A program made the position numbers and the translations under genes. The notes below the pieces were generated by a model that worked only from the letters and a program-made list of their open reading frames with translations, was not told where the DNA came from and did not search any database. A DNA stretch of 59,109 nt, filler included. It is 2 parts of 2 records of this genome, joined end to end, with 100 filler letters (N's around TTAATTAATTAA, not from the genome) between each part and the next. Parts side by side here need not be neighbours in the genome. Positions count along the whole stretch, not along the records: positions 28,461 to 59,109 come from SRR20825006_396; 1 more part is not named here. One strand, written 5' to 3'. How positions within the stretch are numbered: position 1 is the first letter of the stretch; the number at the start of each line of letters is the position of its first letter. Below, piece after piece: positions 28,461 through 53,762 of the stretch.

Positions 28461-28802
28461 GGCGACGGCTCCTACATGTTCGCCAATCCGGTCGCCTGCC
28501 ACCAGATCGCGGAGGCGCTGGAGCTACCAGTTCTGGTCATCATCATGAACAATGCCGAATGGGCCGCGGTGCGCCATTCGGTCACCGACATCTATCCCGA
28601 TGGCTATGCCGCCAAGGCCAACCAGATGCCGCTGACCGCGCTCAATCCCAGCCCGGATTTCGTGCAGGTCGCCAGAGCCAGCCGTGCCTTTGCGGCCAGG
28701 GTCAACAACGCAACCGAACTAACCGAGGGTCTCAAGAACGCCCTCGCCCACATCGCCGACAAGCGCGGTCCCGCGCTGCTCGACGTCACCATGCGCAACT
28801 GA
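28461..28802 (+). CDS. Thiamine-pyrophosphate-dependent enzyme, C-terminal fragment
   Basis: Frame begins GDGSYMF...IIMNN (GDG-x-NN TPP motif) and ends GPALLDV. Confidence 0.85.
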   Translation, partial: GDGSYMFANPVACHQIAEALELPVLVIIMNNAEWAAVRHSVTDIYPDGYAAKANQMPLTALNPSPDFVQVARASRAFAARVNNATELTEGLKNALAHIADKRGPALLDVTMRN

Positions 28803-35507: not shown

Positions 35508-35662
35508 GGGTTCCTCCTGTGGGCCCGTTTGCCGGGCCGGTCGAGCCGGGATGTTTTGCACTGTTCTCCGGCTACTGACCGAACGCTACACGGGAAGCTG
35601 CCCCAACAAGAATAGACTTTTTTCGGAGAAACTTGTACTTTTGCCGGGATATCGAGGGGAAA

Positions 35663-36571: not shown

Positions 36572-37906
36572 CTATTGCTCGTGGAAGGCACGCGCCATGG
36601 AGTCTGTGACCGGCTTGACCAGATAGTCGAGGAAGGTCCGCTCGCGGGTGCGCACCAGCACCTCGGCCGGCATGCCCGGGGTCGGCGAGAAGCCAGGAAT
36701 GCGTCCGATCTGATCTGGCGAAATGGTTATGCGCGCCAGATAGACGTCGCGTTGCGTGCCCTGTGTCCCGGTGATCGTATCAGCGGAAATGTACTGCACC
36801 TGGCCTTCGAGTACCGGCGTCGTGCGCTGATTGAGGGCCGTGAGGCGGATATTGGCCGCCTGCCCTTCCTTGACCTCGTCGATCTGCATGCGGGGGATCT
36901 GGACCTCGACAATCAGAGGGACGTCGGCGGGCAGGATCTCGAAGATCGGCAGGCCACTTTCGACCACGCCGCCCGTGGTATGGTAGTACATGCGCACAAT
37001 GGTGCCGGCGACCGGGGAAGAAATCGTGGTGCGGTTGAGGATGTTCTGGGCCTGCAGGGTCTGTTCGCGCAGCGCTTCGAGTTCGGCTTCAACAGTCTGC
37101 ATCTCATCGAGCGCAGCCTGGCGGACAGCGTCCCGCGCCTGAACGATCTCGCCAGTGTATTTCTCGATCTGGGTATAGGTCTCCTGGACTTCAGACTCGA
37201 GACGGGAAATATCGCCCTCGGCATCAAAGACCGCCCGTTCGACGGAGCGCACGGAAGATTGGGCCACCACACCCTTCTCGAACAGTTCGAGCATGGCCAC
37301 GTGGTCCTCGCGCAGGAGCGCCATCTGGCTTTGCATGGACGCGATCTGGGCCTGGCGGCCGCTGATGCGGAAGCGCAGGGCGGCCAGATTCTGTTCGATC
37401 AATTGCAGTTCGTTGGTGAGCTTTTCGCGCCCCGCCTTGAAATTGGTGCGCTGCCCTTCGACCACCGCGGCGATGTCAGGATTGTCCATATGGTCCTTGA
37501 CGGAATCGGGGGGCACATATTCGTCCAGTTCCAGGGCTTCGGCATTGAGCCGGGCGCGAATGGCCTCAAGCCGGATAACGCGCAATTGCAATTGCTTGGT
37601 CGCTGCACTGGCGGAGGTTTCGTCAAGCAGCAACAGGCTTTGCCCGGCGATCACCTGCTCGCCTTCGCGCACCAGCAGGTCCTTGATGATGCCGCCTTCG
37701 AAATGCTGAACGATCTTGTTCTCGCCGGTGGCAACAAAGCTGCCCTGAGCAATGACAGCGGCCGAGAGCGGCGCTGTCGCCGACCATGTTCCGAAGCCGC
37801 CAAAGGCCAGCGCCACCAGCAACGCTCCGATCCAGACCGGTGTGCGGATGGAGCGCGGTACACCGCTGTACCATTCCAGATTCTGAAGTTCACCAACGGC
37901 AGACAT
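36572..37906 (-). CDS. Type I secretion membrane fusion protein (HlyD/PrsE family)
   Basis: KIVQHFEGGII, ISSPVAGTI, TPGMPAEV, RTFLDYLVKP. Confidence 0.93.
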   Translation of the reverse strand: MSAVGELQNLEWYSGVPRSIRTPVWIGALLVALAFGGFGTWSATAPLSAAVIAQGSFVATGENKIVQHFEGGIIKDLLVREGEQVIAGQSLLLLDETSASAATKQLQLRVIRLEAIRARLNAEALELDEYVPPDSVKDHMDNPDIAAVVEGQRTNFKAGREKLTNELQLIEQNLAALRFRISGRQAQIASMQSQMALLREDHVAMLELFEKGVVAQSSVRSVERAVFDAEGDISRLESEVQETYTQIEKYTGEIVQARDAVRQAALDEMQTVEAELEALREQTLQAQNILNRTTISSPVAGTIVRMYYHTTGGVVESGLPIFEILPADVPLIVEVQIPRMQIDEVKEGQAANIRLTALNQRTTPVLEGQVQYISADTITGTQGTQRDVYLARITISPDQIGRIPGFSPTPGMPAEVLVRTRERTFLDYLVKPVTDSMARAFHEQ

Positions 37907-37909
37907 GGT

Positions 37910-40396
37910 CTAGTTCTCCTCCGATGGCTTGGACACGTTGATGGCCGTGGGATTGTTCCCCGACTTGCCGGTCAAAGCCGCCATGACCTCGGACCGCGTG
38001 CCGAACATGGAAACCGAGCCATTATTGAGCACCAGGATCTTGTCCACGACATTGAGCAGGGCTGGCCGCTGGGTGATGGTCACGACGGTGATCTTTTGTT
38101 TGCGGGCATGTTCGAGCGCCTTGGCCAGCGCCGCCTCGCCCTGTGAGTCGAGATTGGAATTCGGTTCGTCCAGCACCACCAGCTTGGGATTGCCGAAGAA
38201 GGCACGCGCCAGGGCGATACGCTGCTTCTGTCCCCCGGACAGGGGCGCCCCGTCGGCAGCGACAAAGGTCTCGTAGCCTTGCGAGAGACCGGCAATCAGC
38301 TCATGCACATCGGCCAGCACCGCGGCCTCGAAAATGTCCTTGTCGCTGACATCCTCGCGCATGCGGGCAATGTTGGCCTTGATGGTGCCGGGGAAGAGCT
38401 GCACGTCCTGCGGGAGATAGCCGATATTCTCGCCGAACTGGCGTTGGTCCCAGTTGCGCAAATCCATCAGGTCGAGCCGCACCGAGCCTGAGGTGGGCAG
38501 GATGGACCCCACCAGCATCTTGCCCAGTGTCGTCTTGCCGGATCCCGAATTGCCGATCACGGCCAGGGATTCCCCAGGCATCAGGGAGAACGTAATGCCG
38601 TTGAGCAAGACCTTCTTGTTTGGCGGTGGAACGAAAAGAATGCGCTCCACATCCAGCCGGCCCTTTGGCTCTGGCAGCAGCAGGCGTTCAAAGTTGAACG
38701 GGCTTGAGTTGAGCAGCCCCTTGATGCGTCCGAAGGAGGCGCGGAACTGAGAAAAGCCGTTCCAGCCTTCAATCGTGCCTTCAATCGGGGTGAGCGCGCG
38801 GGCTGCGATGATCGAACCAGCGATGACCATGCCACCGGTGATTTCACCCTGGATCGCCAAATAGGCGCCCCAGCCGAGCATGGCCACCTGGGTGAGCAGA
38901 CGCACGCCCTTGGAAATGCTCGACATGATGATGTTGCGATCCTGGGCCTTCACCTGAGCCTGCAGCGACCCGGCGGTATCCCTGCCCCAGATGCGCACCA
39001 CCTCGGGGATCATCGCCAGGGCGTTGATGATCTGGGAATTGCGCGACATGGAATCGAGGTGCAGGGCGGCGCGGCTCAGCAGATTATTGGCATCGGTGAA
39101 GGGGCGGGCGGTCATGCGCTGATTGATCATGGCGATGATCAGCAGGCAGATCGATGCGCCCACCACGATAAAGCCAAGCTGGGGATGAATCAGAAATACG
39201 GCCAGCACAAAGAGCGGCGCCATGGGGGCATCGAGGAAGGACAGCAACGTCCCCGAAACGATAAAGCTGCGCAATTGCTGCAGATCGCCCAGGACCTGAT
39301 AGTCGCGGCCGTTGCTATGCAGTGAGGCCCGCGCCGCAGCGCTGAGAATGGGGGAGCCCAGTTGCACGGCAATCTCGACAGCGGTGCGCATGAGGATGAA
39401 ACGACGCACCGCATCGAGAATGGCCTGCAGGACCACCGCGCCGACCACGGCGGCGGTCAGCATGACCAGAGTGTCCATCGAACGGCTTGTCAGCACGCGG
39501 TCCGAGATCTGGAACAGGTAGATCGGGATTGCCAGCACCAGAATGTTGATGAAGACCGTAAAGCCCATGACGATGCTGAGATTGGTCCGCACCACCGCCA
39601 TGCCATTGGCCAGGCTCTGGGTGAAATTGGGCTGGGCGGCGCGTTTATGGAAGCCCGCGCCGCCGCCGCCCCTGCCCCCTCCATTGCCCGAGCCGTTCGA
39701 GCCCTTGCCGCCGCCATCGCCAGAGGAGGTTTTGCTGGTCGATTTGAGCGGCCCGCGGTCACCCTCCACGATGGGTGGAATGCGGGTTTTGGGCTTGTCC
39801 GGTTCCGGCGTTCGGAAGTCGCGTTGTGGCCATTCTGCACGGGCCTGGTCTGCCTGCGCGGGTTGAGGCTCTTTGTTTGGCGGCGGCGCGGGTTCTGGCT
39901 GCGGCGCAGTCTGTCGCGCCTCGCGCGCGGGCTCTGGTTCCGCTGCGGCCTGGCGCGCCTGCGGCGCGGGATCGGTGATGGGTTCCGGTGTCGCTGTCGC
40001 ATGAGCGGCAACAGCCGGTGCCGGATCGGTCATGGGCTCTGGATGAGCCGCCACTTGCTCCGGAGGTGTTGACACATTGTTGCTTTGTGCTGGCTGATCT
40101 GAGCTCACCGGCGGTGCGGGCTGGGCCTCGGCAGGCCGTGGACGCAGGACCGCGCGGGGCGGCAGAGTGCCCTTCCCCCCCCTGGCAGATGGCGATTCCA
40201 CCGCGCGTTGCGCGCTGTTGTCCTCATCGGACTGGGATGGCGGCGCATGGCTGCGGGCCAGTTCGTCGAGTTCGGCGGCCGCCAGATGGATATCGTCCAT
40301 GATCTGATCCATCCGATCGGCCCGGACCTGGTTGGCGTGGCGCGGTTGACTTCCCAACGCCTGTTGGTCGGTGCGGCTCAGGTGCTCAAAAGTCAT
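37910..40396 (-). CDS. Type I secretion ABC permease/ATPase (PrtD/PrsD-like) with a long Pro/Ala-rich N-terminal extension
   Basis: IYLFQISDRVLTSRS, GNSGSGKT, GYLPQDVQLF, LSGGQKQRIALARA, LDEPNSNLD; no C39 domain seen. Confidence 0.92.
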   Translation of the reverse strand: MTFEHLSRTDQQALGSQPRHANQVRADRMDQIMDDIHLAAAELDELARSHAPPSQSDEDNSAQRAVESPSARGGKGTLPPRAVLRPRPAEAQPAPPVSSDQPAQSNNVSTPPEQVAAHPEPMTDPAPAVAAHATATPEPITDPAPQARQAAAEPEPAREARQTAPQPEPAPPPNKEPQPAQADQARAEWPQRDFRTPEPDKPKTRIPPIVEGDRGPLKSTSKTSSGDGGGKGSNGSGNGGGRGGGGAGFHKRAAQPNFTQSLANGMAVVRTNLSIVMGFTVFINILVLAIPIYLFQISDRVLTSRSMDTLVMLTAAVVGAVVLQAILDAVRRFILMRTAVEIAVQLGSPILSAAARASLHSNGRDYQVLGDLQQLRSFIVSGTLLSFLDAPMAPLFVLAVFLIHPQLGFIVVGASICLLIIAMINQRMTARPFTDANNLLSRAALHLDSMSRNSQIINALAMIPEVVRIWGRDTAGSLQAQVKAQDRNIIMSSISKGVRLLTQVAMLGWGAYLAIQGEITGGMVIAGSIIAARALTPIEGTIEGWNGFSQFRASFGRIKGLLNSSPFNFERLLLPEPKGRLDVERILFVPPPNKKVLLNGITFSLMPGESLAVIGNSGSGKTTLGKMLVGSILPTSGSVRLDLMDLRNWDQRQFGENIGYLPQDVQLFPGTIKANIARMREDVSDKDIFEAAVLADVHELIAGLSQGYETFVAADGAPLSGGQKQRIALARAFFGNPKLVVLDEPNSNLDSQGEAALAKALEHARKQKITVVTITQRPALLNVVDKILVLNNGSVSMFGTRSEVMAALTGKSGNNPTAINVSKPSEEN

Positions 40397-40417
40397 GTGC
40401 TCTATCCGGATACTAAA

Positions 40418-42421
40418 TTACGCAAGGACGGATTGCATGAGGTCGACCGGGGCCGCGTCATGGGTCGTGTCGCCAAGGGCGTAGTCGGCGTTTTCGGCGA
40501 ACGTTTCGGTGTGATCGAGAAAAGCGACGACTTCGCTCACCAGAGCATCATCATCATCGCAATCGTCCTGGGCCTCGAGGATATTGGCCTGGATCAGGAT
40601 GGTGTCGGAGTAGTGGTCGCCGCCCACTTCGATGCTGTCACCAAAGGTGTCGTAGTCCTTGATGGCGGCCATATTGACCAGCGCATTGGAGCCGGTGTCG
40701 ATGTCCCACTCGGTGGCGGGCTGCCCATCAAGGAAGGCCTTTTTCTGCAAGGCGACGAAATCCGCGTCCCCCAGAATATTGGTCTGTTCGATATAGCGCA
40801 GATCGTAGATGCTGCCGGAAACATAGAGCACGCGGGGAATTGCAATGCCCTCGAAGTCGTCAGACGCATAAAAACTGGACGGCATGGACTTGTTGCCACT
40901 GGCAAGGCCGTCCATGGCGTCCTGGTAGTGCTCGGAAATGCCGGACTTTACCTCGGTGGCCCCGACATTGTGGATCGAGGCCTGGTTCCAGAGCAGATTG
41001 TTGGAGGTGTTGAGACTGCCCGAGGCAGCATAGTCCCCATCACCGCCTGAACCGAGCATGGTGATGGTGTCATTGTCGTACAGAATATTGTTCTGCACGA
41101 TGACGTTGGCATCAAACACATTGCCGCCGACCAGGATGAGATCGAAGAGCGAGCCGATATTGGCGAAGTTCACACCGTTGAAGCCAATATTCTCGCCACT
41201 GGTCACCACGGCATCGCTGCCGGTTGCCGACAGCACACCGACATCCTCATCGGACATGAAGGTGAGCTGTTTCATCCACTCAAGGAAAATGATGTCGCCC
41301 GAGACGCATGTGACCTGCCAGTTCTGCGGCATAACATCGGGATTCGCCTCGGCGGCAGCGCCGGCGGCATCGAAGGTTTCCTGCACGAAGGTGGCGACAT
41401 TGACCGCGTTGGTTCCTCCGCCTGCCTGTGCGGCCAGCGGGAAGTCATCGTTGACATAATCAGTGTCACTGTAGGCGTTCGTCTGGATGATGGCGTCGAG
41501 CTGGTGCAAATTCCCGCCGACGACGAAATGGGTCCCGACCATGCCACCATTGAGCACGGTGGCCTCGTTGACCAGGAAATTGCCGCCACTTTTGAAGGTG
41601 ACCGACCCCTCGGTAACATCGTTCTCAATCTGGAGATGGGCCTCGTGCTCGCCAGTGACCTTGATGGTATCGGGGGGCGTTGCGTCTTCGGGCTCTTCCT
41701 GCAGATGTTCTGGCAGCGTATCGGTCAGCTCAGGCGCTTCGGTTTCGAGCTGGCCGTTGACATAGGTCCCGGTCAGGGACTCGACCAGTTCAAACTGGGT
41801 GTCGGGATTGGACTGATGGGCCGTGGCGGTCGCGTTCACCGCGTCGATGACCAGAGGGACATCGTCATAGCTAGAAATGCCGGGGCCGGCACCGATGGGG
41901 CCAAGCACGGCATTGCTTGCTGCCTGCAGCCCGAGCAAGCCAGCGTCGGCGCCGGACTGATAGGTCAAGGGCTCGTCCAGCGTGCCCATGACGAAGACGT
42001 CATCATCGGAAAGGCTGATGGTCTGGGAGAAGACCGCGATGACGGAGCCGGGCTCGGTGCCGATCAGCGGGATCACGATATCGCCTGGGCCCGTGGGCCA
42101 TTGGGACAGCGGCGAGTCCAGGTCGGAGGCGGTGAAATCGGGGGTATTGGCCAGACCAATATTTGTCGGACCGAACATCACCTCGCCGCGGATCAGGAAC
42201 TCGGGAGGGGCGTAGAACACGCCAGGGGCATAATTGCCCAGGGCATAGGCCTGGATAACGTCGACGGAAACCTGCTGCATTTCCGGCGTTTCGGGCGCCG
42301 CTTCGGCTTCATGCTCGGCCAGAGCCATTTCCAGCCGGACCTTCATGTCCTCAGCGGCAATCTGGAAGTAGCCGAGAAAGTGGGCGACAATTTCTGAAAG
42401 GGGATCACTTGGAAAAAACAC
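40418..42421 (-). CDS. Large acidic hypothetical protein with about 5 internal modules; probable T1SS substrate
   Basis: GTG start at 42421 after AGGAGG; no signal peptide; ends 21 nt before the ABC gene start; recurring Q-x5-D-x-D, G-x-N-x3-N and V-[GS]-G motifs. Confidence 0.75.
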   Translation of the reverse strand: MFFPSDPLSEIVAHFLGYFQIAAEDMKVRLEMALAEHEAEAAPETPEMQQVSVDVIQAYALGNYAPGVFYAPPEFLIRGEVMFGPTNIGLANTPDFTASDLDSPLSQWPTGPGDIVIPLIGTEPGSVIAVFSQTISLSDDDVFVMGTLDEPLTYQSGADAGLLGLQAASNAVLGPIGAGPGISSYDDVPLVIDAVNATATAHQSNPDTQFELVESLTGTYVNGQLETEAPELTDTLPEHLQEEPEDATPPDTIKVTGEHEAHLQIENDVTEGSVTFKSGGNFLVNEATVLNGGMVGTHFVVGGNLHQLDAIIQTNAYSDTDYVNDDFPLAAQAGGGTNAVNVATFVQETFDAAGAAAEANPDVMPQNWQVTCVSGDIIFLEWMKQLTFMSDEDVGVLSATGSDAVVTSGENIGFNGVNFANIGSLFDLILVGGNVFDANVIVQNNILYDNDTITMLGSGGDGDYAASGSLNTSNNLLWNQASIHNVGATEVKSGISEHYQDAMDGLASGNKSMPSSFYASDDFEGIAIPRVLYVSGSIYDLRYIEQTNILGDADFVALQKKAFLDGQPATEWDIDTGSNALVNMAAIKDYDTFGDSIEVGGDHYSDTILIQANILEAQDDCDDDDALVSEVVAFLDHTETFAENADYALGDTTHDAAPVDLMQSVLA

Positions 42422-42474
42422 GGGACACCTCCTACTCGCCAATTCGATTCCCAGCGGACTGGCGGAAGTAAGAT

Positions 42475-42507
42475 GATCTGCGCGGTGGGGGCGCTACCGC
42501 GCAGATC
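42475..42507. terminator. Strong intercistronic hairpin
   Basis: GATCTGCGCGGT...ACCGCGCAGATC perfect 12-bp arms just downstream of the D/N/S-rich gene. Confidence 0.65.
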
Positions 42508-42531
42508 TTTGCAAGCGTTGGGGGCGCTCGC

Positions 42532-43743
42532 TTATGCGTCGTCGGTGCTTGCGTCGTTGTTCATGTGGTTGTTGCCACCAACCACCGTCGCGTCGACTGC
42601 GTTCTGCTGCAGGTTGGCACCAAGCACGACTTCCATGTTGAAGGCCGAACCGCTCACCGCTGCACTGGCATCGGCCATGTTGCTGGCGGTCGAGTTGTTG
42701 CTGGCATCACCTTCAAAGTCGTTGCCGTTGGCGTCAGCATCGTCAGCATATGCATAGGCGTTGTAGGTGCCGTTGGCATTGTTCTGAACATTGCTCAGCG
42801 TGTCGTTGTCGACAATGTCGGCCACCTGGCTGATCGCGAAACCAGTGTCGCCGCCGCCGCCCGAGAAGGCGCCATTGAAGACGTTCTCGAAGTTGACATC
42901 GTCACCTGGATCGAATTCGAGCGTGCCGCTGTTGATGAACAGATTGTCCATGGTGGCGGAGCCGATATCGAGGTCGGCGAAGTCATCATCGGAGTTGAAC
43001 GAGTTCGTAGCGTCATCGTCCGAGCTGTTGAACGAGTCCTCGATTTCGACATCCACATCCAGATCAACATCCACGTCGGTGTCAGTTGAGCTGTCAGTAT
43101 TGGTCGAGTTGTCGTTCATCGAGTTATTGACGGACTTATTGTTCGCCACATCTTCAATGTGCGCATCGAGATCGACATCGGTGTCGGTATCGTTGTCCTG
43201 AGAATTGTCATTGAAGGAGTTGGTGTTACCCGAATCCTCAATTTCAACTTCGATGTCGTCGATGGTTGTAGAGCTATCCGTCGAGTTGTCGTTGTTGGAG
43301 TTCGTGTCCGAGTTATCGTTCAGCGAGTCGGCCATGGCGAAGGCCGATGATTGATCCCGGTTATCGGAATTGTCGTTGTTCGAGTTGGTGTCCGAATAGT
43401 CGTTCAGAGAATCTTCGATTTCAACATCGACGTCTGTCGAGTTGTCGGAATTGTCATTCAGAGAATCCTCGATTTCAACATCGACGTCAGTGTCTGTCGA
43501 GTTGTCATTATTCGAATTGGTATCCGAATTGTCGTTCAGGGAATCCTCGATTTCGACATCCAGGTCAGTGTCTGTCGAATTGTCGTTGTTGGAGTTGGTG
43601 TCCGAGTTATCGTTCCCGGAGTCATCCACGTCGATATCGTTGCCGGAATTCGTATTTCCGGAATCTTCAATTTCCAGCTCGATATCGTCGATGTTGGTGG
43701 AATTGTCAGTGGCATTGCCATTGTTGTTGAAGTCGTCAGCCAT
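42532..43743 (-). CDS. Asp/Asn/Ser-rich repeat protein; probable T1SS-secreted structural protein
   Basis: ATG at 43743 after GAGGAG; 403 aa; tandem NDNS..TDxDxDVEIEDSL repeats; no signal peptide, no Cys or Trp. Confidence 0.8.
   Translation of the reverse strand: MADDFNNNGNATDNSTNIDDIELEIEDSGNTNSGNDIDVDDSGNDNSDTNSNNDNSTDTDLDVEIEDSLNDNSDTNSNNDNSTDTDVDVEIEDSLNDNSDNSTDVDVEIEDSLNDYSDTNSNNDNSDNRDQSSAFAMADSLNDNSDTNSNNDNSTDSSTTIDDIEVEIEDSGNTNSFNDNSQDNDTDTDVDLDAHIEDVANNKSVNNSMNDNSTNTDSSTDTDVDVDLDVDVEIEDSFNSSDDDATNSFNSDDDFADLDIGSATMDNLFINSGTLEFDPGDDVNFENVFNGAFSGGGGDTGFAISQVADIVDNDTLSNVQNNANGTYNAYAYADDADANGNDFEGDASNNSTASNMADASAAVSGSAFNMEVVLGANLQQNAVDATVVGGNNHMNNDASTDDA
42979..43707 (-). repeat. Coding tandem repeats (about 26-aa unit NDNSDTNSNNDNSTDTD[LV]DVEIEDSL and shorter variants)
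   Basis: Two near-identical adjacent 78-bp units plus several degenerate copies visible in the translation. Confidence 0.9.
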
Positions 43744-44291
43744 AGTCACTCTCCTCAATGAAAAATAATGGCTGAGCTACCAAGACCTCCTGTCATCTTG
43801 AATGGAGGCATATTTGGGGGCTCATGACCTGCAAGGCATACGCGAGATACACGGGCTACTGGTGCTGCACGCAAAAACTGATCAACACCGTCCAGTCCAG
43901 AACTCAATTACCAAGCACGACGCGGCATTTGCTGCATCGCAGTTTCAAAGTATTGCTGGACGAAAGGCGAAGTATAGTTGCCACTTCAGGCTAGGCTGAA
44001 GGGCCCAATAGTAATCTTATCGACTTAGGACATGTGTTCGGTGCGCGGAGGAGCTAGATCGTTTCCAATCCCCTGTACGGGGGAGAAACCGCACCAGGAA
44101 CTCCATCGAAAGGTTGATTTTGGCCAGCCCGAAGGGGTTAGAGATCAATCTTTTGCATTAGTCTCGCCGGGGAATGAATCACGCCAGAGTCACGCCCGCG
44201 GTGTTAACGTTTTGTCAACCTTGGGAGCGATGGTGCCAAGCACAACTGGGGACAGGCGTTCACAGTAATCGCAAGGTGAGGGAGTGGTAAA

Positions 44292-45146
44292 GTGCGTGAA
44301 AACCTCTATGACGGTCTACGCAGTCCGCGTCAGATCGAAGATCGGCCAATAAAATCCGGCACACTTCGGCTTGTGTTTGTTGCCCCACAACAAGCCATAT
44401 ACCAATGCCTTAGCAGTGCATTACAGGACCATTTTCGCGATGCGGCGGTTTTTCTAGTCGACCGGATCGATGATAGCAGTGATCCGGATCATAGTGTCGG
44501 GCTGGTGCTGCTCGGCGCAGGCGCCCGGGTGATCAGCGTAGATTTCATCGAGCAATGCCGCCGGCGCTTTCCCAATGCGGCCATTGCGGTCGCCGTCGAT
44601 AATGGCCTGCCGGTCGTGGACCCGCAGCTGACCGAGCAGCGACTCATTCAGGGAATCCTGCCCACGTCCCTGCCGCTCGATGTCTGGTTCGCGCTGATGC
44701 GGCTGGTCATGGCCGGCGGTGAATATCTGCCACATGGCGATGGCGCCGCATCGGGCCATTTCGAGCCGGTGCATCGGAGCGCGCCGGGCGCGCTTCCGCT
44801 GACGCCGGCCAGCCAGGCACCAGCGCCCCGGCAAAGACTGGCCGCCGAAATTGCGGTGCAGCAGAGCGACCGGGTCCAGGGTGAGCTGGAAAACGGCCTG
44901 GATACGCTGACGGCGCGGGAGCGGGAGATACTCACTCTTGTGTCGGAAGGGTATCAAAACAAGCTGATTGCCGATCGGATGGCCTTGTCGGAACATACCG
45001 TCAAGGCGCATGTGCACAATCTGATCGCCAAGCTTCGGGTGACCAACCGCACCCAGGCGGCCGCCTATCTGCACGAACACCGGGTCGATAAGAGCGCCCT
45101 TAACACTGGATATGGTGACCGCCGTCGGGCCACCGCCCTGGGGTGA
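44292..45146 (+). CDS. LuxR-family HTH regulator with a degenerate receiver-like N-terminus
   Basis: LTAREREILTLVSEGYQNKLIADRMALSEHTVKAHVHNLIAKLRVTNRTQAA; GGAG RBS. Confidence 0.9.
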   Translation: MRENLYDGLRSPRQIEDRPIKSGTLRLVFVAPQQAIYQCLSSALQDHFRDAAVFLVDRIDDSSDPDHSVGLVLLGAGARVISVDFIEQCRRRFPNAAIAVAVDNGLPVVDPQLTEQRLIQGILPTSLPLDVWFALMRLVMAGGEYLPHGDGAASGHFEPVHRSAPGALPLTPASQAPAPRQRLAAEIAVQQSDRVQGELENGLDTLTAREREILTLVSEGYQNKLIADRMALSEHTVKAHVHNLIAKLRVTNRTQAAAYLHEHRVDKSALNTGYGDRRRATALG

Positions 45147-45634
45147 ATGCCATGCCCAGCCTGGACAAGGTGCTCCAGCAGGTCGGTCAGTTGAACTATG
45201 TGTGGACCAATACGGAAAGCCTGTTCATCTACCTGATCGCCCACCTGGCCGGAACGTCCAAGGACGCTGCGGTCATCATATTCCTGACGCTGAACACCAC
45301 GCGGGCGCGACTGGACCTGCTTGACAGGTTGGCCAAATTGCCGGCAACGCCGCCAGAGACCAGGGCGGCGGTGCTGGACCTGACCGAGCGCCTCAAGAAA
45401 GAGTCCAAGGTCCGGAACAAATACAATCATTGCATCTACTCATTCGACTCCAATGGCGAATTGAGCGGGACGCAATTGATGCGCATTGTCGAGTTTGACG
45501 ATGCGCTCAAATATGGCAAGTCCGAAGCGCTGGACGACAGGGAGTTTGAACGGGTTCAGGCCGCCATCCAGGCGATTACATCGGTCAATCGGGATTTGTG
45601 GGCGTTCTTTGCGGCCAGCGGAATCAAGCCCTGA
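45143..45634 (+). CDS. Hypothetical helical protein, overlapping the LuxR stop codon
   Basis: GTGA overlap with the luxR-like gene (alternative ATG at 45152); contains VGQLNYVWTNTES and VRNKYNHC. Confidence 0.7.
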   Translation: MNAMPSLDKVLQQVGQLNYVWTNTESLFIYLIAHLAGTSKDAAVIIFLTLNTTRARLDLLDRLAKLPATPPETRAAVLDLTERLKKESKVRNKYNHCIYSFDSNGELSGTQLMRIVEFDDALKYGKSEALDDREFERVQAAIQAITSVNRDLWAFFAASGIKP

Positions 45635-45778
45635 ATTGATCAAAAGTTTGCATGGATTGAACAAATAACCGTGAGCGGCGGATGGCCCAGGCGTAAGTTG
45701 TACAATGTATGTTCTTGTTAGGGTAAGATCAGCAGTTCTCGTACAGAACATTGCTGCGTAGAGGGACGGAGGGCGCAG

Positions 45779-46528
45779 ATGGGTATTCAAGCGCCGCACC
45801 ACACAACAATAAGGCTGCTTGGCCCCTGTTGCCTGCTTGTGGGCAACAATCTGGTCCAGGGCGTTCCTGCGAGTTTTTTCCGGATCGCGGCCTATCTGAT
45901 CCTCTCCACCCCCGAACAGGTGCAGGCGCGCAGCCGATTGGCGGCACTGTTCTGGCCCAATGCGGATGACGGCAAGGCGGCAGCCAATCTACGCCAGGCT
46001 GTTGCCCGAATACGGCATGTCCAGGAACAGCATGGATTCACTCTGATCCAGGCCAATGTCTCGACCCTGCACCTGGCCCCTAGCGCTGATGTCTATTGCG
46101 ACCTGATCGAGATGTCCCGGCATATCGAGGGAGAAGTCGTGCTCAACCCGCTGCAGCTTTCGCGCATTTATGGTGGCGAGTTGCTGGCCAATCAGGACTC
46201 GAGCGGGGAGGAATTCGAGGACTGGTTGTCCTCACGACGCAATGAATTGCTGCTGCATGCGGTCGACGGCATTGCCGAGGGATTGCGCCCGGACGTAGTG
46301 TTCACCCAGGCCGAGCGCAGCATCTGTGCGCGGCGTCTGCTCGAACTCGATCCCTATCGGGAAGACGCGGTTTGCGTCTTGATGGAGGAGGCGGCGGAGC
46401 GCCGGCACTATGCCAGGGTGAACGAGCTTTACACCGCCATGCGGAGCGTATTGTCCAACGAGCTGGGCGTCGAACCGAGCGCAGAAACGCGGGCGCTTTA
46501 TGCCAGTTTGATGGAAACCGTGCGCTGA
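45779..46528 (+). CDS. SARP/BTAD-domain transcriptional regulator (stand-alone)
   Basis: IRLLG, RSRLAALFWP..ANLRQ, FEDWL, LELDPYREDA, ELGVEPSAET. Confidence 0.85.
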   Translation: MGIQAPHHTTIRLLGPCCLLVGNNLVQGVPASFFRIAAYLILSTPEQVQARSRLAALFWPNADDGKAAANLRQAVARIRHVQEQHGFTLIQANVSTLHLAPSADVYCDLIEMSRHIEGEVVLNPLQLSRIYGGELLANQDSSGEEFEDWLSSRRNELLLHAVDGIAEGLRPDVVFTQAERSICARRLLELDPYREDAVCVLMEEAAERRHYARVNELYTAMRSVLSNELGVEPSAETRALYASLMETVR

Positions 46529-46544
46529 CGGCGCGCGTCATGGC

Positions 46545-47675: not shown

Positions 47676-47889
47676 TGGTGCCTCCCCGAATCGAACACCG
47701 ACCAACCCTGCCAATAGAAAAATGAAGCAAGGACCGGAACGCGGCAATTAGACAGAACTATCTAGATCGTTGTATTAGTAGCACCATTTCAAATCAAAAG
47801 TTAGACTATCCGCTAACAGAGTCATTTGATGCGGGAGAGGTTCTGCAGAAAGCTTTGTGGTACAGCAACTTTGTTAGTGGTGAGTCGAG

Positions 47890-48528
47890 ATGCACAAGTT
47901 ATCACAAGTAGTAAACACGAGAATATTGGGCATTTCTACTGCCCTAACACTTATGGCGGCACTGCCCGCTGCGGCCGAATCGCTGGTCGTTATATCCATG
48001 GCTGGAGAGGCCTATGACGGCCCACCTAGCTTTGATCTTTTGATCGATGACAAGGTGATTGGCAGCGGCACGCTGCGCATGGCGATCGAAACCGAAGCCG
48101 ATGGGCGCCTGTTTACCAAACCGCGCCCCAGCTCGTTCCTGGAAGAGTTTTCCTTCACGGTCTCCGATGACCTGCTGACCCCGGACGCTGAAATCAGCCT
48201 GGTGCTGACCAATGACAAGTTTACCCGCATGGACGGCGCCGGCGAGGACGGGGTGCTCGACCGCAACCTGTTCATCGACTTCGTGCGGGTCAACGACATC
48301 GAGGTGACGTCAGCCGATATGGTGCTGATCCATGATGGCGATGTGGTGCAATATAACTACCAGGCGGGACTGTTGCCGATCTATGAGGCAGGGTTTCGTG
48401 CGGTGGCGCGGGCGCCCGAGGGCGGCTGGCTGAATGGCGCCGTTGCCCGGGTCGGTATGCTCGATATCCCCTTGCCCTTGCCGCGACCGAAGGATCTGAC
48501 GCTCGACGTCGGCCTGGTGCAGCAATGA
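47890..48528 (+). CDS. Exported protein with a CBM60-like Ca-dependent carbohydrate-binding domain
   Basis: Signal peptide; [19 protein letters not shown] and [13 protein letters not shown] match my recollection of the Ca-dependent xylan-binding module pattern. Confidence 0.65.
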
Positions 48529-49607
48529 GCCCGCAGCATAAAGTGACCAGGCCGGTGCGCCAGATCCGCACCGGCCAGGGGACAGTTACGCCCAAATCCA
48601 TCTGCGTAACCGGTGGGGCGGGGTTCCTTGGTTCGCATCTGTGTGCCCGCCTGATTGGCGAGGGACACCGGGTCACCTGCATCGACAATTTTCACACCGG
48701 CCGTCCGGCCAATGTGGCGGCCCTGGCGCGCAGCAACCGCTTCGAATTGGTCGAGCACGACGTGATGGACACCCTGCCCGAGCAATTGCCGGCCTTTGAC
48801 GAAATCTACAATCTCGCCTGCCCGGCCTCCCCGGTGCATTATCAGAGCGATCCGGTCCGAACCGCGCTGATCTGCGCGGAGGGTGCCGCCAATGTGCTTT
48901 ATCGTGCCCAGCGAGACGGCGCCCGGGTGATGCATGCATCAACCTCGGAAGTTTATGGCGACCCAGAAGTCCACCCGCAGCGCGAGGACTATTGCGGCAA
49001 CGTCAACACGGTCGGCCCGCGCTCCTGCTATGACGAAGGCAAGCGTTTTGCCGAGACGCTGCTCACCGACTTCGGCCGCCAAAGCGGTGTGGTGGTCAAG
49101 ATTGTGCGCATCTTCAATACCTATGGCCCCCGCATGCAGCCTGATGACGGTCGCGTGGTCTCCAATTTCATCCTCCAGGCCCTGCGCGGCGAGGACATCA
49201 CGATCTATGGCCTGGGCCAGCAGACCCGCTCGTTCTGTTACGTCGATGATCTGATCGAGGGCTTTGTCCGCCTCATGGCGTCAGGTCCGGAAGTCGATGG
49301 ACCCGTCAATATCGGCAATCCCACCGAGATTACTGTGGGCGAGTTGGCGCGCATCATCATCGAGATGACTGGTTCACCGTCAAAGCTCGTTCATCTGCCC
49401 CTGCCGGTCGATGATCCGCGCCGCCGGCGTCCCGACATCACCCGTGCCAGCACCCTGCTCGGCTGGGGGCCGCGCGTGCCCCTGACCGAAGGGCTGGAAA
49501 AAACCATCCGCTTCTTTGCCAGCCTCAACCAGACGCTGGCGCCAGCAACGCGCCGTGGACCGGTCTTTGCACCGGCCACCCAGAGTGAGCCCTTCGTACA
49601 AATCTAG
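48525..49607 (+). CDS. uxs: UDP-glucuronate decarboxylase (UDP-xylose synthase)
   Basis: [68 protein letters not shown]. Confidence 0.92.
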
Positions 49608-49634
49608 TTTTAGTAACAGAGTGAGTGATGAACC

Positions 49635-51065
49635 ATGCGCCTCATTATTATCGGTTCGGGTTATGTCGGTTTGGTTTCGGGCGCATGCCTGGCGGAGCTG
49701 GGACACCACGTCATGTGCGTGGACAATGATGCAAACAAGGTCGAGCAGCTTCAGGCCGGCCAGATCCCCATCTATGAACCGCAGCTCTCCGAGATGATCA
49801 CCCGAAATGTGGCGCAGGGACGCCTGGGCTTCACGAGCCGGTTGCCGGCGCTGGGCAAGGAGATACATGCGGTCATGATCGCGGTTGGCACGCCGCCCCA
49901 GACCAATGGCAGCGCTGATCTCAGCGCCATTTTCGCGGTCGCCGAGGAAGTTGCCTCCAAGGCCATCCATCCGCAAATGGTGATCATCAAATCCACGGTA
50001 CCGGTCGGCACTGGCGACAGCGTGCAGGCGTTGATGCACAAGGCGCGACCCGAATTGCACTTCTCGGTGATCTCCAATCCCGAATTCCTGCGCGAAGGCT
50101 CGGCCATTGATGACTTCATGGCGCCGGACCGCATCGTGGTGGGCGCCGGAGACGAAACCGCGCGCAATACGCTGCGGGCGCTCTATGCGCCGCTGGAGCA
50201 GACCGGAACGCAGGTGGTCTGCATGGGCCGGCGGGATGCCGAACTGGTCAAATGCGCCGCCAATGCGTTCCTGGCCACCAAGATCGCCTTCATCAATGAA
50301 ATGGCGGATCTGTGCGAAGCGGTCGGTGCTGATGTCGACCAGGTGGCCCATGGCATCGGGCTGGACGAGCGGATCGGCGCGGCTTTCCTGCAGGCCGGAC
50401 CGGGCTATGGCGGGTCGTGCTTCCCCAAGGACACGACAGCGCTGCAGGCCATTGCCCAGGAGCATGGGATCAATCTGCGACTGGTCGAAACCGTCATTGC
50501 CTCCAATGAGGCGCGCAAGCGCGCGATGGGCCGCCGGGTGTCGAGGGCGCTGCATGGCGACTTGTCCGGGCGGGTCGTGGCGGTGCTGGGCCTGACCTTC
50601 AAGCCCAATACGGACGACATGCGTGATTCACCGTCCCTGGCCCTGATCGATGCCCTGCAACGGGCCGGTGCAAAGGTGCAAGTGTTTGATCCGCAAGGCA
50701 TGAATCGGGCCCGTGCGCATCTGCCCGATGTCCATTTTGCGGACAATGCCTATCTCTGTGCCGAAGGGGCGGATTGCACCGTTCTGGCCACCCATTGGCC
50801 CGAATTTGCCACGCTGGACGCCGAGCGGCTGGCGCGGCTGGTGCGTAATAAGGTCTTGGTGGACCTGCGCAATTTCCTCGATCAACAGGCCTTTCTCAAT
50901 GCCGGTTTTGCGGTCCACGCCATTGGGCGATCGCCGCAGCAGCCCCGGCGCCATAACGTGGTCGCGGTGCCCCAGCTCAGCGCCCGCACCCCGTCCAGGA
51001 GGGCCTACATGAACGGGACAGCGCACCGTCCGAGCCGGGCCCTGCAAGATGGCATGAGCGGCTAG
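49635..51065 (+). CDS. ugd: UDP-glucose 6-dehydrogenase
   Basis: GSGYVGL, IAVGTP, KSTVPVG, SNPEFLREG, GYGGSCFPKD, FKPNTDDMR. Confidence 0.93.
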   Translation: MRLIIIGSGYVGLVSGACLAELGHHVMCVDNDANKVEQLQAGQIPIYEPQLSEMITRNVAQGRLGFTSRLPALGKEIHAVMIAVGTPPQTNGSADLSAIFAVAEEVASKAIHPQMVIIKSTVPVGTGDSVQALMHKARPELHFSVISNPEFLREGSAIDDFMAPDRIVVGAGDETARNTLRALYAPLEQTGTQVVCMGRRDAELVKCAANAFLATKIAFINEMADLCEAVGADVDQVAHGIGLDERIGAAFLQAGPGYGGSCFPKDTTALQAIAQEHGINLRLVETVIASNEARKRAMGRRVSRALHGDLSGRVVAVLGLTFKPNTDDMRDSPSLALIDALQRAGAKVQVFDPQGMNRARAHLPDVHFADNAYLCAEGADCTVLATHWPEFATLDAERLARLVRNKVLVDLRNFLDQQAFLNAGFAVHAIGRSPQQPRRHNVVAVPQLSARTPSRRAYMNGTAHRPSRALQDGMSG

Positions 51066-51092
51066 AACCAGCGTCGCGAGAGGGGGCAGGTT

Positions 51093-52595
51093 ATGGAAAC
51101 CAGCGAGACAGTGAGCCTATTGCTTGTCGGTGCCTTCTGCACGGTCCAGATCGCCTATGCCCTCTCGCAATGGCTTGATCTTTATTTCTTCACCCGCCCG
51201 GTCAACTGGGTGGACCCGAATGCGGCGCGCGGCAGGCCCCCGGAAGACTATCCCTATATCGTGCTGTTCTACCCGGTGCTGCGCGAACTCGAATCCACCA
51301 TGCGCACCACATTCCTGAGCCTGGCGCAGCTCGAATATCCCAAGGACAAGTTCAGCGTCGTGGCCATTCCCAATGCCGATGACGCCTTCACCGTGCGCTC
51401 GCTGCGGCGGCTGCAGAAGGAATTCCCCTTCCTCCAGATTATTGAAGTGCCGGCCACTTCGCACAAATCCTGGCTGGTGGTGTGGAAGGCCTGGGATCGC
51501 TGCAAGAAGGCCTATTGGTGGCATGAGGGCAAGTTCGCCCAGAACCGCAATCTGCCGCCCAAGAAGACGCGGCAATTGATCTATGCCTTCTACCAGATCG
51601 CCGAGCGGGTGATGACCACCCAGGACTTCCTGGTCAACTATATCGACGCGGACAGTTGCCCGCCCAGCGACCATTTCCTGGCCGCGGCCGCCGGCATGGG
51701 GCAGTATGACGTGCTCCAGGCGCAGAACATCGCGGGCAATCTCAACGCGAGCTGGGCGGCGAGCTGGCATGCCTTTGACCACATGGCCTGGGACGGCTCG
51801 AAATATCCGCATCTCTCGGCCAATGGGAAACACCCCTATTGGGTGCTGGGCAAAGGGCTGTTCTTCCGCGCCTCGGACCTGATCACGCTGGGCGGCTTCC
51901 ACCCCTGGCTGACGATCGAGGACCCGGAAGTGGGCATGCGCTTCTGGACCAATGGCAAGCGGCTGGGGGTCATTGAAAACCCCTTGATCGAGGAAGTTCC
52001 GCTGACCTTTGCGCATGGCATTACCCAGCGCAAGCGCTGGGTGGCGGGGTTCTTCCAGAGCCTGACCTACCCGCTCAAGGCCATTGGCATGCCCTGGCCG
52101 GCCCGCTTCAAGGCGTGGCTGAATTTCCTGCCATGCCTGTCGCTCTCGCTCAACTCCGTCGGTCTTCCGCTGGGGATCTGGGCCACCTGGTCGGCCTGGA
52201 CCGGACAGAACATATTGCCCGATTGGGCCATCGTGCTGTCCCTGGCCAATCTGGTGGTCTTCACCGCGTCGATGAGCGCGCTTTATGTGCGCACCTGGCG
52301 CCGCGCGGCGCTGGTCCTGCCCAGGCGCAAGGACCGTCTACGCTATCTGTGGCGGGTCAATCCGGTCTTTATCCTGGTGTGGTGGCTGATCTGGCTCGTT
52401 CCGCTCTGGATCGGCTTCCGCATGTTCCTGCGCAATGAGGGCCTGGTATGGGAACGCACCGAGAAGACCGATGCCAACCACGATCTGGTCCGCGTCGCGC
52501 GAACCAAAAAATCGCACGCAACGACCCGCCCCGCTGCCGCCGTCAAATCCAACCAGCCCGCCACCATGGAAGCAGGGGCCGAAAAATCCTCATAA
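51093..52595 (+). CDS. Membrane GT2 glycosyltransferase with a processive-synthase signature
   Basis: N-terminal TM; IDAD (DxD), TIED, QRKRW (QxxRW); C-terminal TMs; WERTEK tail. Confidence 0.85.
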   Translation: METSETVSLLLVGAFCTVQIAYALSQWLDLYFFTRPVNWVDPNAARGRPPEDYPYIVLFYPVLRELESTMRTTFLSLAQLEYPKDKFSVVAIPNADDAFTVRSLRRLQKEFPFLQIIEVPATSHKSWLVVWKAWDRCKKAYWWHEGKFAQNRNLPPKKTRQLIYAFYQIAERVMTTQDFLVNYIDADSCPPSDHFLAAAAGMGQYDVLQAQNIAGNLNASWAASWHAFDHMAWDGSKYPHLSANGKHPYWVLGKGLFFRASDLITLGGFHPWLTIEDPEVGMRFWTNGKRLGVIENPLIEEVPLTFAHGITQRKRWVAGFFQSLTYPLKAIGMPWPARFKAWLNFLPCLSLSLNSVGLPLGIWATWSAWTGQNILPDWAIVLSLANLVVFTASMSALYVRTWRRAALVLPRRKDRLRYLWRVNPVFILVWWLIWLVPLWIGFRMFLRNEGLVWERTEKTDANHDLVRVARTKKSHATTRPAAAVKSNQPATMEAGAEKSS

Positions 52596-52622
52596 GACGC
52601 GTAATGAGTAAGGAGTAACACA

Positions 52623-53762
52623 ATGACGAAAGGACACGTTCTGGTCACCGGGGGTGCCGGCTTTATCGGATCTCATCTGGTGGACATGTTGCTGGCCCGG
52701 GGGTTCGACGTCACCGTCCTCGATTGCCTGCTGGACCAGGTACATGGCGACGCCGAGCGCGATGCCGAGGGTTGGCCGGTCTATCTCAATCCCGCCGCCC
52801 GCCGCATCAAAGGCAATATTCTCGATGACGGCGTGTTCGAGAGCGCCCTTAGCGGCATTACCCATCTGGCCCACCTCGCCGCTTCGGTCGGGGTTGGGCA
52901 GAGCATGACCAATATTGTCGATTACACCCGCAACAACACCATGGCCGCGGCGATCATGCTCGAAGTGCTGTCGCGTACCGAGCACAGCGTCGAGCGCATG
53001 ACGGTGGCCTCATCCATGTCGATCTATGGCGAAGGGCAATATGTCGAGGCCGAGACTGGCCGCCCGGTCATGCCCGATATGCGCGATCACGAACAGTTGC
53101 AGGCTCATCACTGGGAGCTGAACAAGGACGGCGCGACCCTGCTGCCTGTGCCGACCGACGAGAACAAACTGCTCCAGCCCGCCTCGATCTATGCGGTCAA
53201 CAAGCGCGACCATGAGGAGATGTTCCTCTCGGTCGGGCGGGCCCTCAAGATTCCCACCGTGGCGCTCAGGCTGTTCAATGCCTATGGCTCGCGCCAGGCG
53301 CTGAGCAATCCCTATACCGGGGTTGCCGCCATCTTCATTTCACGCCTGCTCAACGACCAGCCACCCATCATCTTCGAGGATGGGGAGCAGAAGCGTGATT
53401 TCGTGCATGTGCTCGATGTGGCCAATGCCTTTGCCACCGTGCTCGAAAGCGATCTGGCGGTGTGGGAAACGTGCAATGTCGGCAGCGGGCAGGCGCGGAC
53501 CGTCAACGAGATTGCGACCACACTGGCTCGGCTGTTGCGCAAGAATATCGCGCCGACCATTCTCAACCAGTACCGGGTCGGGGATATCCGCCATTGCTTT
53601 GCCGATATCAGCAAGCTCGAAAAGCTGTTCGGCATCCGGCCGACGCAGGAGTTCGAGGCGGGGATGGCGCAGTTGATCGAATGGGTGCAGACGGTGAACC
53701 GCCCGCAGGACCGCTCGCAGCAATCGCTGGCCGAGCTGACCCGCAGCCGATTGGTGGTTTGA
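52623..53762 (+). CDS. NAD-dependent nucleotide-sugar epimerase/dehydratase (extended SDR)
   Basis: TGGAGFIGS, ASSMSIYGE, YAVNK (YxxxK), RDFVHV, GDIRH. Confidence 0.88.
   Translation: MTKGHVLVTGGAGFIGSHLVDMLLARGFDVTVLDCLLDQVHGDAERDAEGWPVYLNPAARRIKGNILDDGVFESALSGITHLAHLAASVGVGQSMTNIVDYTRNNTMAAAIMLEVLSRTEHSVERMTVASSMSIYGEGQYVEAETGRPVMPDMRDHEQLQAHHWELNKDGATLLPVPTDENKLLQPASIYAVNKRDHEEMFLSVGRALKIPTVALRLFNAYGSRQALSNPYTGVAAIFISRLLNDQPPIIFEDGEQKRDFVHVLDVANAFATVLESDLAVWETCNVGSGQARTVNEIATTLARLLRKNIAPTILNQYRVGDIRHCFADISKLEKLFGIRPTQEFEAGMAQLIEWVQTVNRPQDRSQQSLAELTRSRLVV

Follow-up and report, generated by a model that had tools for sequence, protein, structure and literature searches.

The window analysed here, a stretch of 59,109 nucleotides assigned to a Devosia strain by the names of its homologues (two records joined end to end, the second covering positions 28,461 to 59,109), contains a block of 17,191 bases, 36572-53762, in which ORF calling gave 13 closely packed open reading frames (ORFs). 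Judged by its gene content and by the distribution of its genes among relatives, the block reads as a composite of two separable modules, a secretion module (module A, 36572-46528) and a glycan module (module B, 46545-53762). An initial annotation had placed here a block of ~17 kb bounded by convergent, unrelated genes, and this was borne out: transport and catabolic genes converge with the block on both sides. Those to its left encode an AraC/HpaA-like regulator, a Liv-type ATP-binding cassette (ABC) importer and an aldehyde dehydrogenase; those to its right encode a BadF-type kinase, NanE and a sugar ABC importer. The gene identities it gave held for 12 of the 13 genes. Its gene list was incomplete, since orf163 (45143-45634), the best-conserved gene of module A, had been overlooked. 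The genes of the block, and the sequence element found in both of its divergent promoter regions, are the following:

36572..37906, minus strand: MFP, membrane-fusion protein (HlyD type) of a type I secretion system (T1SS), 444 aa; TIGR01843, Pfam HlyD_3
37910..40396, minus strand: ABC, T1SS permease/ATPase (PrtD type), 828 aa; TIGR01842
40418..42442, minus strand: acid674, acidic beta-repeat protein of ~668 aa, likely T1SS substrate
42532..43758, minus strand: acid408, low-complexity acidic protein (D/N/S/T-rich), likely second T1SS substrate
44054..44063, plus strand: CTAGATCGTT, copy 1, in the divergent intergenic region between acid408 and LuxR
44292..45146, plus strand: LuxR, LuxR/GerE-family regulator with a receiver-like N-terminal domain; GerE helix-turn-helix (HTH)
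45143..45634, plus strand: orf163, predicted conserved cytoplasmic protein; 4-nt overlap of its start with the LuxR stop
45779..46528, plus strand: BTAD-domain (SARP-like) regulator; PF03704
46545..47747, minus strand: GH10 glycoside hydrolase, probably a Tat-exported lipoprotein; PF00331
47756..47771, plus strand: near-palindrome AACTATCTAGATCGTT containing CTAGATCGTT, copy 2 (at 47762), in the divergent intergenic region between GH10 and the CBM60-like gene
47890..48528, plus strand: CBM60-like exported protein; CBM60 score below cut-off, predicted signal peptide
48525..49607, plus strand: uxs, UDP-glucuronate decarboxylase (UDP-xylose synthase) homologue
49635..51065, plus strand: ugd, UDP-glucose 6-dehydrogenase; TIGR03026, three Pfam domains
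51093..52595, plus strand: GT2 synthase, membrane-embedded, processive-type; PF13632
52623..53762, plus strand: extended short-chain dehydrogenase/reductase (SDR), nucleotide-sugar 4-epimerase-like; Pfam Epimerase in two stretches

The minus-strand genes of module A follow each other in the order acid408, acid674, ABC and MFP, with gaps of 89 bp, 21 bp and 3 bp. The GH10 gene is convergent with the BTAD gene and divergent from the plus-strand operon CBM60-like-uxs-ugd-GT2-SDR, in which the CBM60-like gene overlaps the start of uxs by 4 nt, to which it is translationally coupled, and the later genes are spaced by 27 bp. The LuxR-type regulator stands at the hinge of the two halves. A scan for promoter and terminator consensus sequences found sites no more numerous than in shuffled sequence.

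Both transporter proteins score well above curated cut-offs, in agreement with the initial annotation. The ABC protein matches TIGR01842 with 718.1 bits (cut-off 510.15) over residues 267-808 and carries the ABC_membrane and ABC_tran domains, and MFP matches TIGR01843 with 378.3 bits (cut-off 208.65). Homologues of MFP, 48-97% identical, are encoded 3' of the ABC gene in related loci. The transmembrane segments of the ABC protein start at residue 274, and residues 1-265 (39602-40396) form a low-complexity extension rich in P, A, Q and E, cytoplasmic and probably disordered; homologues in other loci are 726-994 aa long and the length of this extension varies. No TolC-like outer-membrane channel was found within the block in a Pfam scan.

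Neither acid674 nor acid408 matches a Pfam or NCBIfam model. They had been described as signal-less, acidic and non-RTX, and they are: their net charges are -89 and -100, the N-terminus is not hydrophobic, and neither a GG.G.D motif nor a HemolysinCabind match is present. The module that they were said to share shrinks to a motif of 17 residues, with a BLASTP E-value of 0.59 and, in a profile-profile comparison, 17 columns (I.Q...L.DNDT) at a probability of 0.9% and E 0.063. Because they lack an N-terminal signal, are acidic in composition, have conserved C-termini and lie directly upstream of the ABC gene, both proteins are likely substrates of the T1SS. The probable start of acid674 is a GTG at 42421. 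A word-index search returned 54 homologues of ~668 aa which begin with MFFPSDP and end with D[VL]MQSVLA, and a profile search of 1.84 billion proteins gave 794 representatives, nearly all 640-720 aa long and without any Pfam family; a protein-cluster search gave only clusters that are unnamed or called 'type I secretion protein'. No homologue was found in a sample of 41 relatives of the nearest genome. acid408 consists of 21% D and 18% N, and its gene contains imperfect DNA repeats of 54, 78 and 177 nt with a GC content of ~0.54 against ~0.61 around it. Its C-terminal domain of ~170 aa is conserved. In other loci, the equivalents encoded 5' of the acid674 homologue are 307-714 aa long and combine this conserved C-terminus with a variable repeat part, where the N-terminal sequences are highly divergent and of low complexity, made of D/N/S/T, GN or G/A/D repeats.

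The regulator annotated earlier as a pseudo-receiver LuxR contains a GerE HTH (70.4 bits, residues 204-259), so that this part of the assignment stands. The receiver part did not hold in the same way, as the N-terminus matches neither Response_reg nor any other receiver model, and structural matches are limited to the HTH. In the family alignment the protein reads LVLLGAG where some homologues read LVLID, a Gly thus replacing the Asp, and one distant homologue matches Response_reg with 27 bits, which is consistent with a degenerate receiver. The BTAD regulator (PF03704, 36.7 bits, cut-off 22.1) is present in Devosia-type loci with and without the glycan half. orf163 has no family match in Pfam, NCBIfam or protein clusters, and an alignment of 28 sequences contains 35 invariant columns.

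Conservation of module A was followed in a GTDB genome scan that gave 177 relatives of acid674, of which the best 80 loci were analysed by tblastn with the window proteins (loci are numbered L below). The ABC gene is present in 79 of these 80, the exception being L040, of 2,982 bases. orf163 was found in 69, at 49-98% identity and located 3' of either the LuxR or the MFP gene, and LuxR in 59; the loci where these two were missed are mostly cut by contig ends. The conserved unit consists of LuxR, orf163, a small acidic protein, the acid674 homologue, ABC and MFP, and it is kept across Hyphomicrobiales, in Devosia, Phyllobacterium, Mesorhizobium, Aminobacter, Agrobacterium, Rhizobium, Ensifer, Shinella and others. 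Together with the orf163 and LuxR proteins that accompany it, the acid674 family is large and wholly uncharacterised.

Turning to module B, family models and motifs confirmed GH10, uxs, ugd, a QxxRW GT2 and an SDR, just as they had confirmed the BTAD regulator. The hydrolase matches PF00331 with 252.8 bits, has NEP at 202 and TELD at 317, which we take to be the motifs of the acid/base and nucleophile glutamates, and has Cex and xylanases as its best solved relatives (E 1e-48). Its leader, KRRDLII followed by an LIGC lipobox, is probably a Tat lipoprotein signal. The CBM-like protein divides the evidence: the copy in the window scores 24.8 bits, below the gathering cut-off of 28.2, whereas three orthologues pass it (L028, 39.6; L106, 36.8; L109, 36.6 bits). 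Its predicted signal peptide ends AAA/E. Both uxs and the last gene of the operon encode extended SDRs. uxs is 64% identical over 311 residues to the gene at the uxs1 position of the Sinorhizobium terangae APS locus and 58-61% identical to the uxs1 genes of Rhizobium and Ensifer, and its matches on plasmids carry the annotation UDP-glucuronic acid decarboxylase. ugd matches TIGR03026 with 446 bits (cut-off 189.8). The SDR has UDP-sugar 4-epimerases as its best solved relatives, and these matches do not specify its substrate.

The GT2 protein matches PF13632 (Glyco_trans_2_3) with 85.9 bits. With the motifs DAD at 185, IED at 276 and QRKRW at 312, and transmembrane-like segments at 6-24, 374-392 and 424-442, it is predicted to be a processive-type membrane synthase. 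No PDB sequence matched it at E 0.01; the CelA model TIGR03030 gave 23.5 bits against a cut-off of 699, and PilZ did not match. We found 837 homologues, for which identity is still 60-70% in Sphingomonas, Aureimonas, Kaistia, Nitratireductor and Mesorhizobium, and mean column identity in an alignment of 12 sequences is 68%. A few of them bear the automatic label XagB. At E 1e-60, a sample of 401 genomes drawn evenly from the class gave no match to this GT2.

A metagenome scan gave 232 relatives of this GT2, and the best 80 loci were analysed, counting for each gene only the loci with room for it. The SDR lies beside the GT2 gene in 54 of 57 loci, and GH10 does so in 35 of the 36 whose flanks extend for 5 kb or more in both directions; 51 of 56 loci have uxs, 26 of 56 have ugd and 9 of 51 have the CBM60-like gene. 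A BcsS-family (BcsS-like, outer-membrane) protein is encoded 3' of the SDR in 22 of 46 loci (e.g. L127:4766-5509). None of the 11 GT2 loci with T1SS-module genes has this BcsS-like gene; they tend to have the CBM60-like gene instead, so that the two distributions are complementary. The cluster can also stand alone, exemplified by the chromid of Rhizobium sp. BG4, where uxs-ugd-GT2-SDR is framed by a GH10 gene on each side and no acid674, acid408, LuxR or orf163 lies within 14 kb. Since the processive-type GT2, the supply of UDP-xylose and GH10 are paired almost obligatorily, the product of module B would, by analogy with the logic of cellulose operons, be a synthase-dependent polymer with beta-1,4-xylosyl bonds. 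The constancy of the epimerase-like SDR makes it likely that a second sugar is involved.

The two halves share a promoter element. The 10-mer CTAGATCGTT occurs in exactly two exact copies in the window, at 44054 and 47762, one in each divergent intergenic region; allowing up to one mismatch there are 5 matches, against 1.09 expected. Both sites are kept in L006, L007, L009, L010, L011, L013 and L019, and L008 keeps one, so that the place of copy 1 is conserved in 8 related loci and that of copy 2 in 7. In L013 protein identity to the window ranges from 52% (acid674) to 76% (GT2), and the bases flanking CTAGATCGTT are unrelated. Across 1.13 Mb of GT2 loci it occurs 8 times, always at these two sites (L102, L103, L105 and L122). 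In five whole Devosia genomes there are 2, 2, 3, 2 and 4 occurrences, 10 of these 13 being the two sites, and a reversed-pattern control gave 8 occurrences in the same genomes. A CTAGATC core is found in the region between LuxR and the acidic genes of L012, L014, L016 and L017, three of which are without the glycan half, which hints at an element native to module A that the glycan operon has since acquired. In 8 APS-linked loci of Rhizobiaceae, no 9-mer was common to both promoter regions in more than three loci. The presence of CTAGATCGTT in both divergent promoter regions argues for the co-regulation that had been proposed, possibly through one regulator for both modules, and gives a direct handle on it.

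The modules are also linked by position. Both are present in 11 of 54 module A genomes, and they are adjacent in all 11, in the same order as in the window in nine and rearranged in two (L028 and L029). The divergent contigs L109/L110, L113 and L130 carry both modules in different layouts, with GT2 62-68% and acid674 27-31% identical to those of the window. Furthermore, 9 of the 80 loci, from Rhizobium, Ensifer, Shinella and Allorhizobium, have an APS-type cluster, uxs1-uxe-apsS-DUF995-GH26, immediately next to module A. In these APS-linked loci the LuxR gene immediately precedes uxs1 in the same orientation, and no CuxR is present. Of 50 module A genomes, 18 have a synthase of the apsS type, which is adjacent in 9. 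This repeated siting of the acid674-family module beside two different UDP-xylose-dependent synthase clusters is a testable lead to its function.

We therefore consider the block to be a lineage-specific fusion of two self-contained modules acting on the same cell-surface material, a reading to which we give a probability of about 0.5. The LuxR-type regulator, together with orf163 and in Devosia the BTAD protein, would control the operon for the acidic proteins and the ABC-MFP pair, and this pair would export acid674 and acid408 through a TolC-like channel encoded elsewhere. Ugd and Uxs would convert UDP-glucose to UDP-xylose, the 4-epimerase-like SDR would make a second sugar donor, and the membrane GT2 would polymerise and translocate a xylose-based, probably beta-1,4-xylan-like chain. 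The GH10 lipoprotein and the CBM60-like protein may handle or trim this polymer in the periplasm, in a role comparable to that of BcsZ towards cellulose. One regulator of module A would switch on both modules via CTAGATCGTT, and outside the cell the secreted acidic proteins would bind the glycan, organise it or modify it.

A more specific form of this model is tentative. It holds that uxs-(ugd)-GT2-epimerase-GH10 is a GT2 route to a beta-1,4-xylan-like exopolysaccharide (EPS), unrelated to the GT43/GT47 route of plants and algae and widespread in Alphaproteobacteria, which in Devosia has been wired by the promoter element to the T1SS acidic pair, giving a protein-xylan matrix. If the GT2 makes a xylan-like chain, bacteria would possess a one-enzyme route to a polymer that has until now been associated with plants and algae. 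The GH10 and CBM60 genes of soil and marine alphaproteobacteria could then be read as serving the handling of a self-made polymer and not only plant decay. Full-text literature searches listed nothing relevant on a bacterial GT2 xylan synthase or a biosynthetic cluster with uxs and GH10.

Several observations weigh against a functional union of the modules. No GT2 of the module B family was found in 43 of the 54 module A genomes, the 11 positives serving as a control that the search works, and among the 35 GT2 loci that extend 9 kb or more upstream, 26 show no module A gene. All 11 adjacent cases are Devosia and hence not independent. In a quick GT2 tree the linked label needs two changes, so that a single origin is possible; this tree has 70 rows, and 12 of 81 loci, among them L109 and L110, were omitted as no ORF of 440 aa or more was called in them. 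In 9 of 18 co-occurring genomes the apsS-type synthase is encoded away from module A. L014, L028 and L029 have both modules and no exact CTAGATCGTT. We estimate the chance that two such regions share some 10-mer at ~0.1-0.15; the sharing alone is thus not rare, and the weight rests on the conservation and the genome-wide counts. The block has no outer-membrane glycan exporter, and GH10 and CBM60 are classically catabolic families. The initial annotation would have been contradicted by halves that are unlinked in other genomes, and the outcome is divided: most genomes have a single module, yet adjacency is complete where both occur. A T1SS module with likely substrates joined to a UDP-xylose/GT2/GH10 glycan module is supported, and their coupling is plausible and lineage-specific.

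These observations would also fit two mere neighbours, independent accessory modules in a strain-variable region of Devosia without any functional link, the secreted proteins serving for instance in adhesion or cation binding. The nearest relative genome, G001, matches the window from 1 to ~28,360 at 98-99% and has no match from 28.4 to 59.1 kb, so that the strain-variable region around the block spans 31 kb or more. Besides, L113 and L130 have transposase genes on the flanks of the pair, each module stands alone in most genomes, and the linked cases may trace to one event. We nevertheless find this unlikely: the adjacency extends to the rearranged genomes, a second and unrelated UDP-xylose cluster adjoins module A in Rhizobiaceae, and the 10-mer specific to the block stands in both promoter regions.

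Similarly improbable is a glycan that is not xylan-like, with the GT2 polymerising L-arabinose, as in APS, or a uronic acid, for example, and GH10 and CBM60 scavenging plant xylan. The linked 4-epimerase-like SDR would be needless for a pure xylan, and its substrate is not readable from its matches; moreover, the Sinorhizobium uxs1 operon leads to an arabinose-containing polymer, according to the retrieved passages of PMC7902896. Against this stand the linkage of GH10 to the GT2 in nearly every testable locus, the translational coupling of the CBM60-like gene to uxs, and the absence of xylose transport or catabolic genes from the block, all of which fit better with a xylan-like chain.

The initial annotation spoke of a protein fibre, and this claim has been weakened, as it now rests only on a beta-repeat model with weak matches. 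An AlphaFold2 (AF2) model of acid674 built from 12 sequences was too poor (pLDDT 49.5). The model used here, from 54 sequences, has pLDDT 68 and pTM 0.68 and predicts a core, residues 115-617, of stacked long beta-hairpins between termini (1-114 and 618-667) that are disordered in the model. The sequence contains recurring invariant motifs, G-x9-Q-x5-D-x-D, and many invariant D, N and Q residues. A Foldseek search against PDB gave nothing at E of 0.001 or below, the top match being CsgA (8c50, E 0.28), and in a VIA-align search of 48,161 chains the single row with Z of at least 2 is FapC (9u4u, Z 3.8, rmsd 4.5, 92 residues); the acid674 profile found nothing below E 0.12 among PDB sequences. 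It may be speculated from this that acid674, acid408 or both form extracellular amyloid-type fibres which, with the glycan, make a curli/cellulose-like matrix under a CsgD-like regulator. The only structural matches, all weak, are functional amyloids, acid408 and its homologues have long N/Q/G/D-rich repeats, and among NCBIfam models CsgD ranks second for the regulator's HTH. However, every structural match lies below any threshold, no Curlin_rpt or Fap model matches in Pfam, and the match to the CsgD model NF007505 is confined to the HTH and reaches 54.5 bits against a cut-off of 250. The block contains no homologues of a nucleator or chaperone, and the strong negative charge of both proteins is, in our view, unusual for amyloid cores. 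We consider curli-like fibres quite unlikely.

PlyA, PlyB, ExsH and alginate epimerases are T1SS substrates that act on EPS, and the beta-repeat protein could likewise be an extracellular glycan-modifying enzyme (a lyase, hydrolase or epimerase) and not a structural partner. Low-ranked Foldseek rows for acid674 are beta-helix lyases and pectinases (E 1-9), and its many invariant D, N and Q residues would suit an enzyme. A rhizobial precedent exists in Rhizobium leguminosarum, where PrsDE exports the Rap proteins and the glycanases PlyA and PlyB, which bind or cut the bacterium's own EPS and shape the biofilm matrix (retrieved passages of PMC9298526 and PMC1403797). Yet no beta-helix enzyme reaches Z 2 in the all-against-all structural search, no CAZy-type Pfam model matches, and acid674 is equally conserved where the adjacent EPS genes differ or are absent; an enzymatic role has poor odds, in our judgement. 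That ABC/MFP and TolC export the polysaccharide itself, as in BgsA-BgsB-TolC, a route of GT2, HlyD-type adaptor and TolC proposed for mixed-linkage glucan (retrieved part of PMC13438883) to which the lack of BcsS-like genes in T1SS-linked GT2 loci would be congenial, is very improbable, as the ABC protein is a full PrtD-type protein exporter and the pair always comes with both acidic proteins, also in the 43 genomes without the module B GT2.

As to the two-module fusion proposed above, our literature searches brought up no characterised locus that combines these genes. The idea that such a system is new to Alphaproteobacteria stands only in part, since pairing a T1SS with EPS has precedents; undescribed are both acidic protein families, orf163 and possibly the polymer. 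One precedent is the set ExpE1/ExpD1/ExpD2, which lies inside the galactoglucan (EPS II) cluster of S. meliloti and is needed for that EPS, according to the retrieved passages of PMC1403797. As in module A, a PrtD/PrtE-type ABC and MFP pair and a secreted non-enzymatic substrate are encoded there in an EPS cluster. ExpE1 is described as a calcium-binding, NodO-like protein, in contrast to the window proteins without RTX motifs (a comparison by description), and EPS II has many glycosyltransferases compared with the one synthase of the block. The PrsDE system differs as well: the Rap proteins bear Ra/CHDL domains (retrieved passages of PMC9298526) whereas acid674 and acid408 have no recognised domain, and the acid674 family has its own LuxR and orf163 regulators.

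With curli and cellulose under CsgD, the block has in common a secreted repeat protein, a GT2 glycan and a regulator of the LuxR family, besides the weak resemblance in fold to CsgA and FapC. It differs in type I export instead of a CsgG channel, in the lack of a Curlin repeat and in a regulator that fails the CsgD model. Cellulose operons are likewise synthase-dependent: their membrane GT2 carries D, DxD, ED and QxxRW, and they encode a hydrolase (BcsZ) that acts in the periplasm and matches the synthase in specificity. The BcsS-family protein of 22 of 46 related GT2 loci adds to the likeness, as some proteobacteria have BcsS in their cellulose operons. Unlike these operons, the block has no PilZ, BcsB or BcsC in a Pfam scan, and its precursor genes indicate a pentose, not glucose.

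Another known system of similar gene content is the Sinorhizobium APS cluster, which has a UDP-xylose synthase, an SDR of the 4-epimerase type, one QxxRW membrane GT2 and a glycoside hydrolase; its polymer is cryptic and gated by a regulator (retrieved passages of PMC12560781 and PMC7902896). As regards the xylose-based part of the initial annotation, the overlap with this operon is limited to uxs. The GT2 is 23% identical over 204 residues (E 0.006) to the gene at the apsS position of L063 and gave no tblastn match in the S. terangae APS locus. The window SDR is 24-29% identical to uxe, GH10 takes the place of a GH26-like hydrolase and the CBM60-like protein that of DUF995, and ugd is additional. 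Two further candidates for a relation to APS were rejected. The AraC gene at 35633-36556 is not a CuxR, as the match to the gene at the cuxR position covers 86 HTH residues at 33% and its best model is HpaA. The ABC and MFP genes upstream of cuxR and the APS operon in S. terangae (L001:5743-8681) belong to a different system, being 36% and 33% identical and without an acid674 homologue.

Some further observations concern the surroundings of the modules. The break in the match to G001, near 28360, lies directly after a PEPCK gene and beside a C-terminal fragment (108 aa, 28476-28802) of a TPP-enzyme. Transposases of the IS1595, IS66 and IS21 types and an AlpA-like gene are located in or beside combined loci (L113:6440-8668 and L130:12791-14060), which suggests that the T1SS and glycan pair moves as mobile DNA. 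In 25 of the 80 module A loci, though not in the window, a protein combining GNAT (Acetyltransf_6) and TPR domains is encoded 3' of MFP (e.g. L063:16321-18021, L070:16799-18586 and L045:16099-17928) and may modify a substrate. A LapG-like BTLCP cysteine protease (PF06035, transglutaminase-type) adjoins module A in 17 of the 80 loci (L039, L044-L047, L050, L053-L055, L057, L066, L074, L075, L078, L082, L084 and L021), which hints that in those lineages the substrate is retained at the surface and released by cleavage. Finally, in Phyllobacterium (L024:629-5042, L025 and L036) module A adjoins a Wzx-type EPS cluster with Bac_transf, Polysacc_synt_3 and GINT1_N-like genes, a third kind of polysaccharide neighbour of this module.

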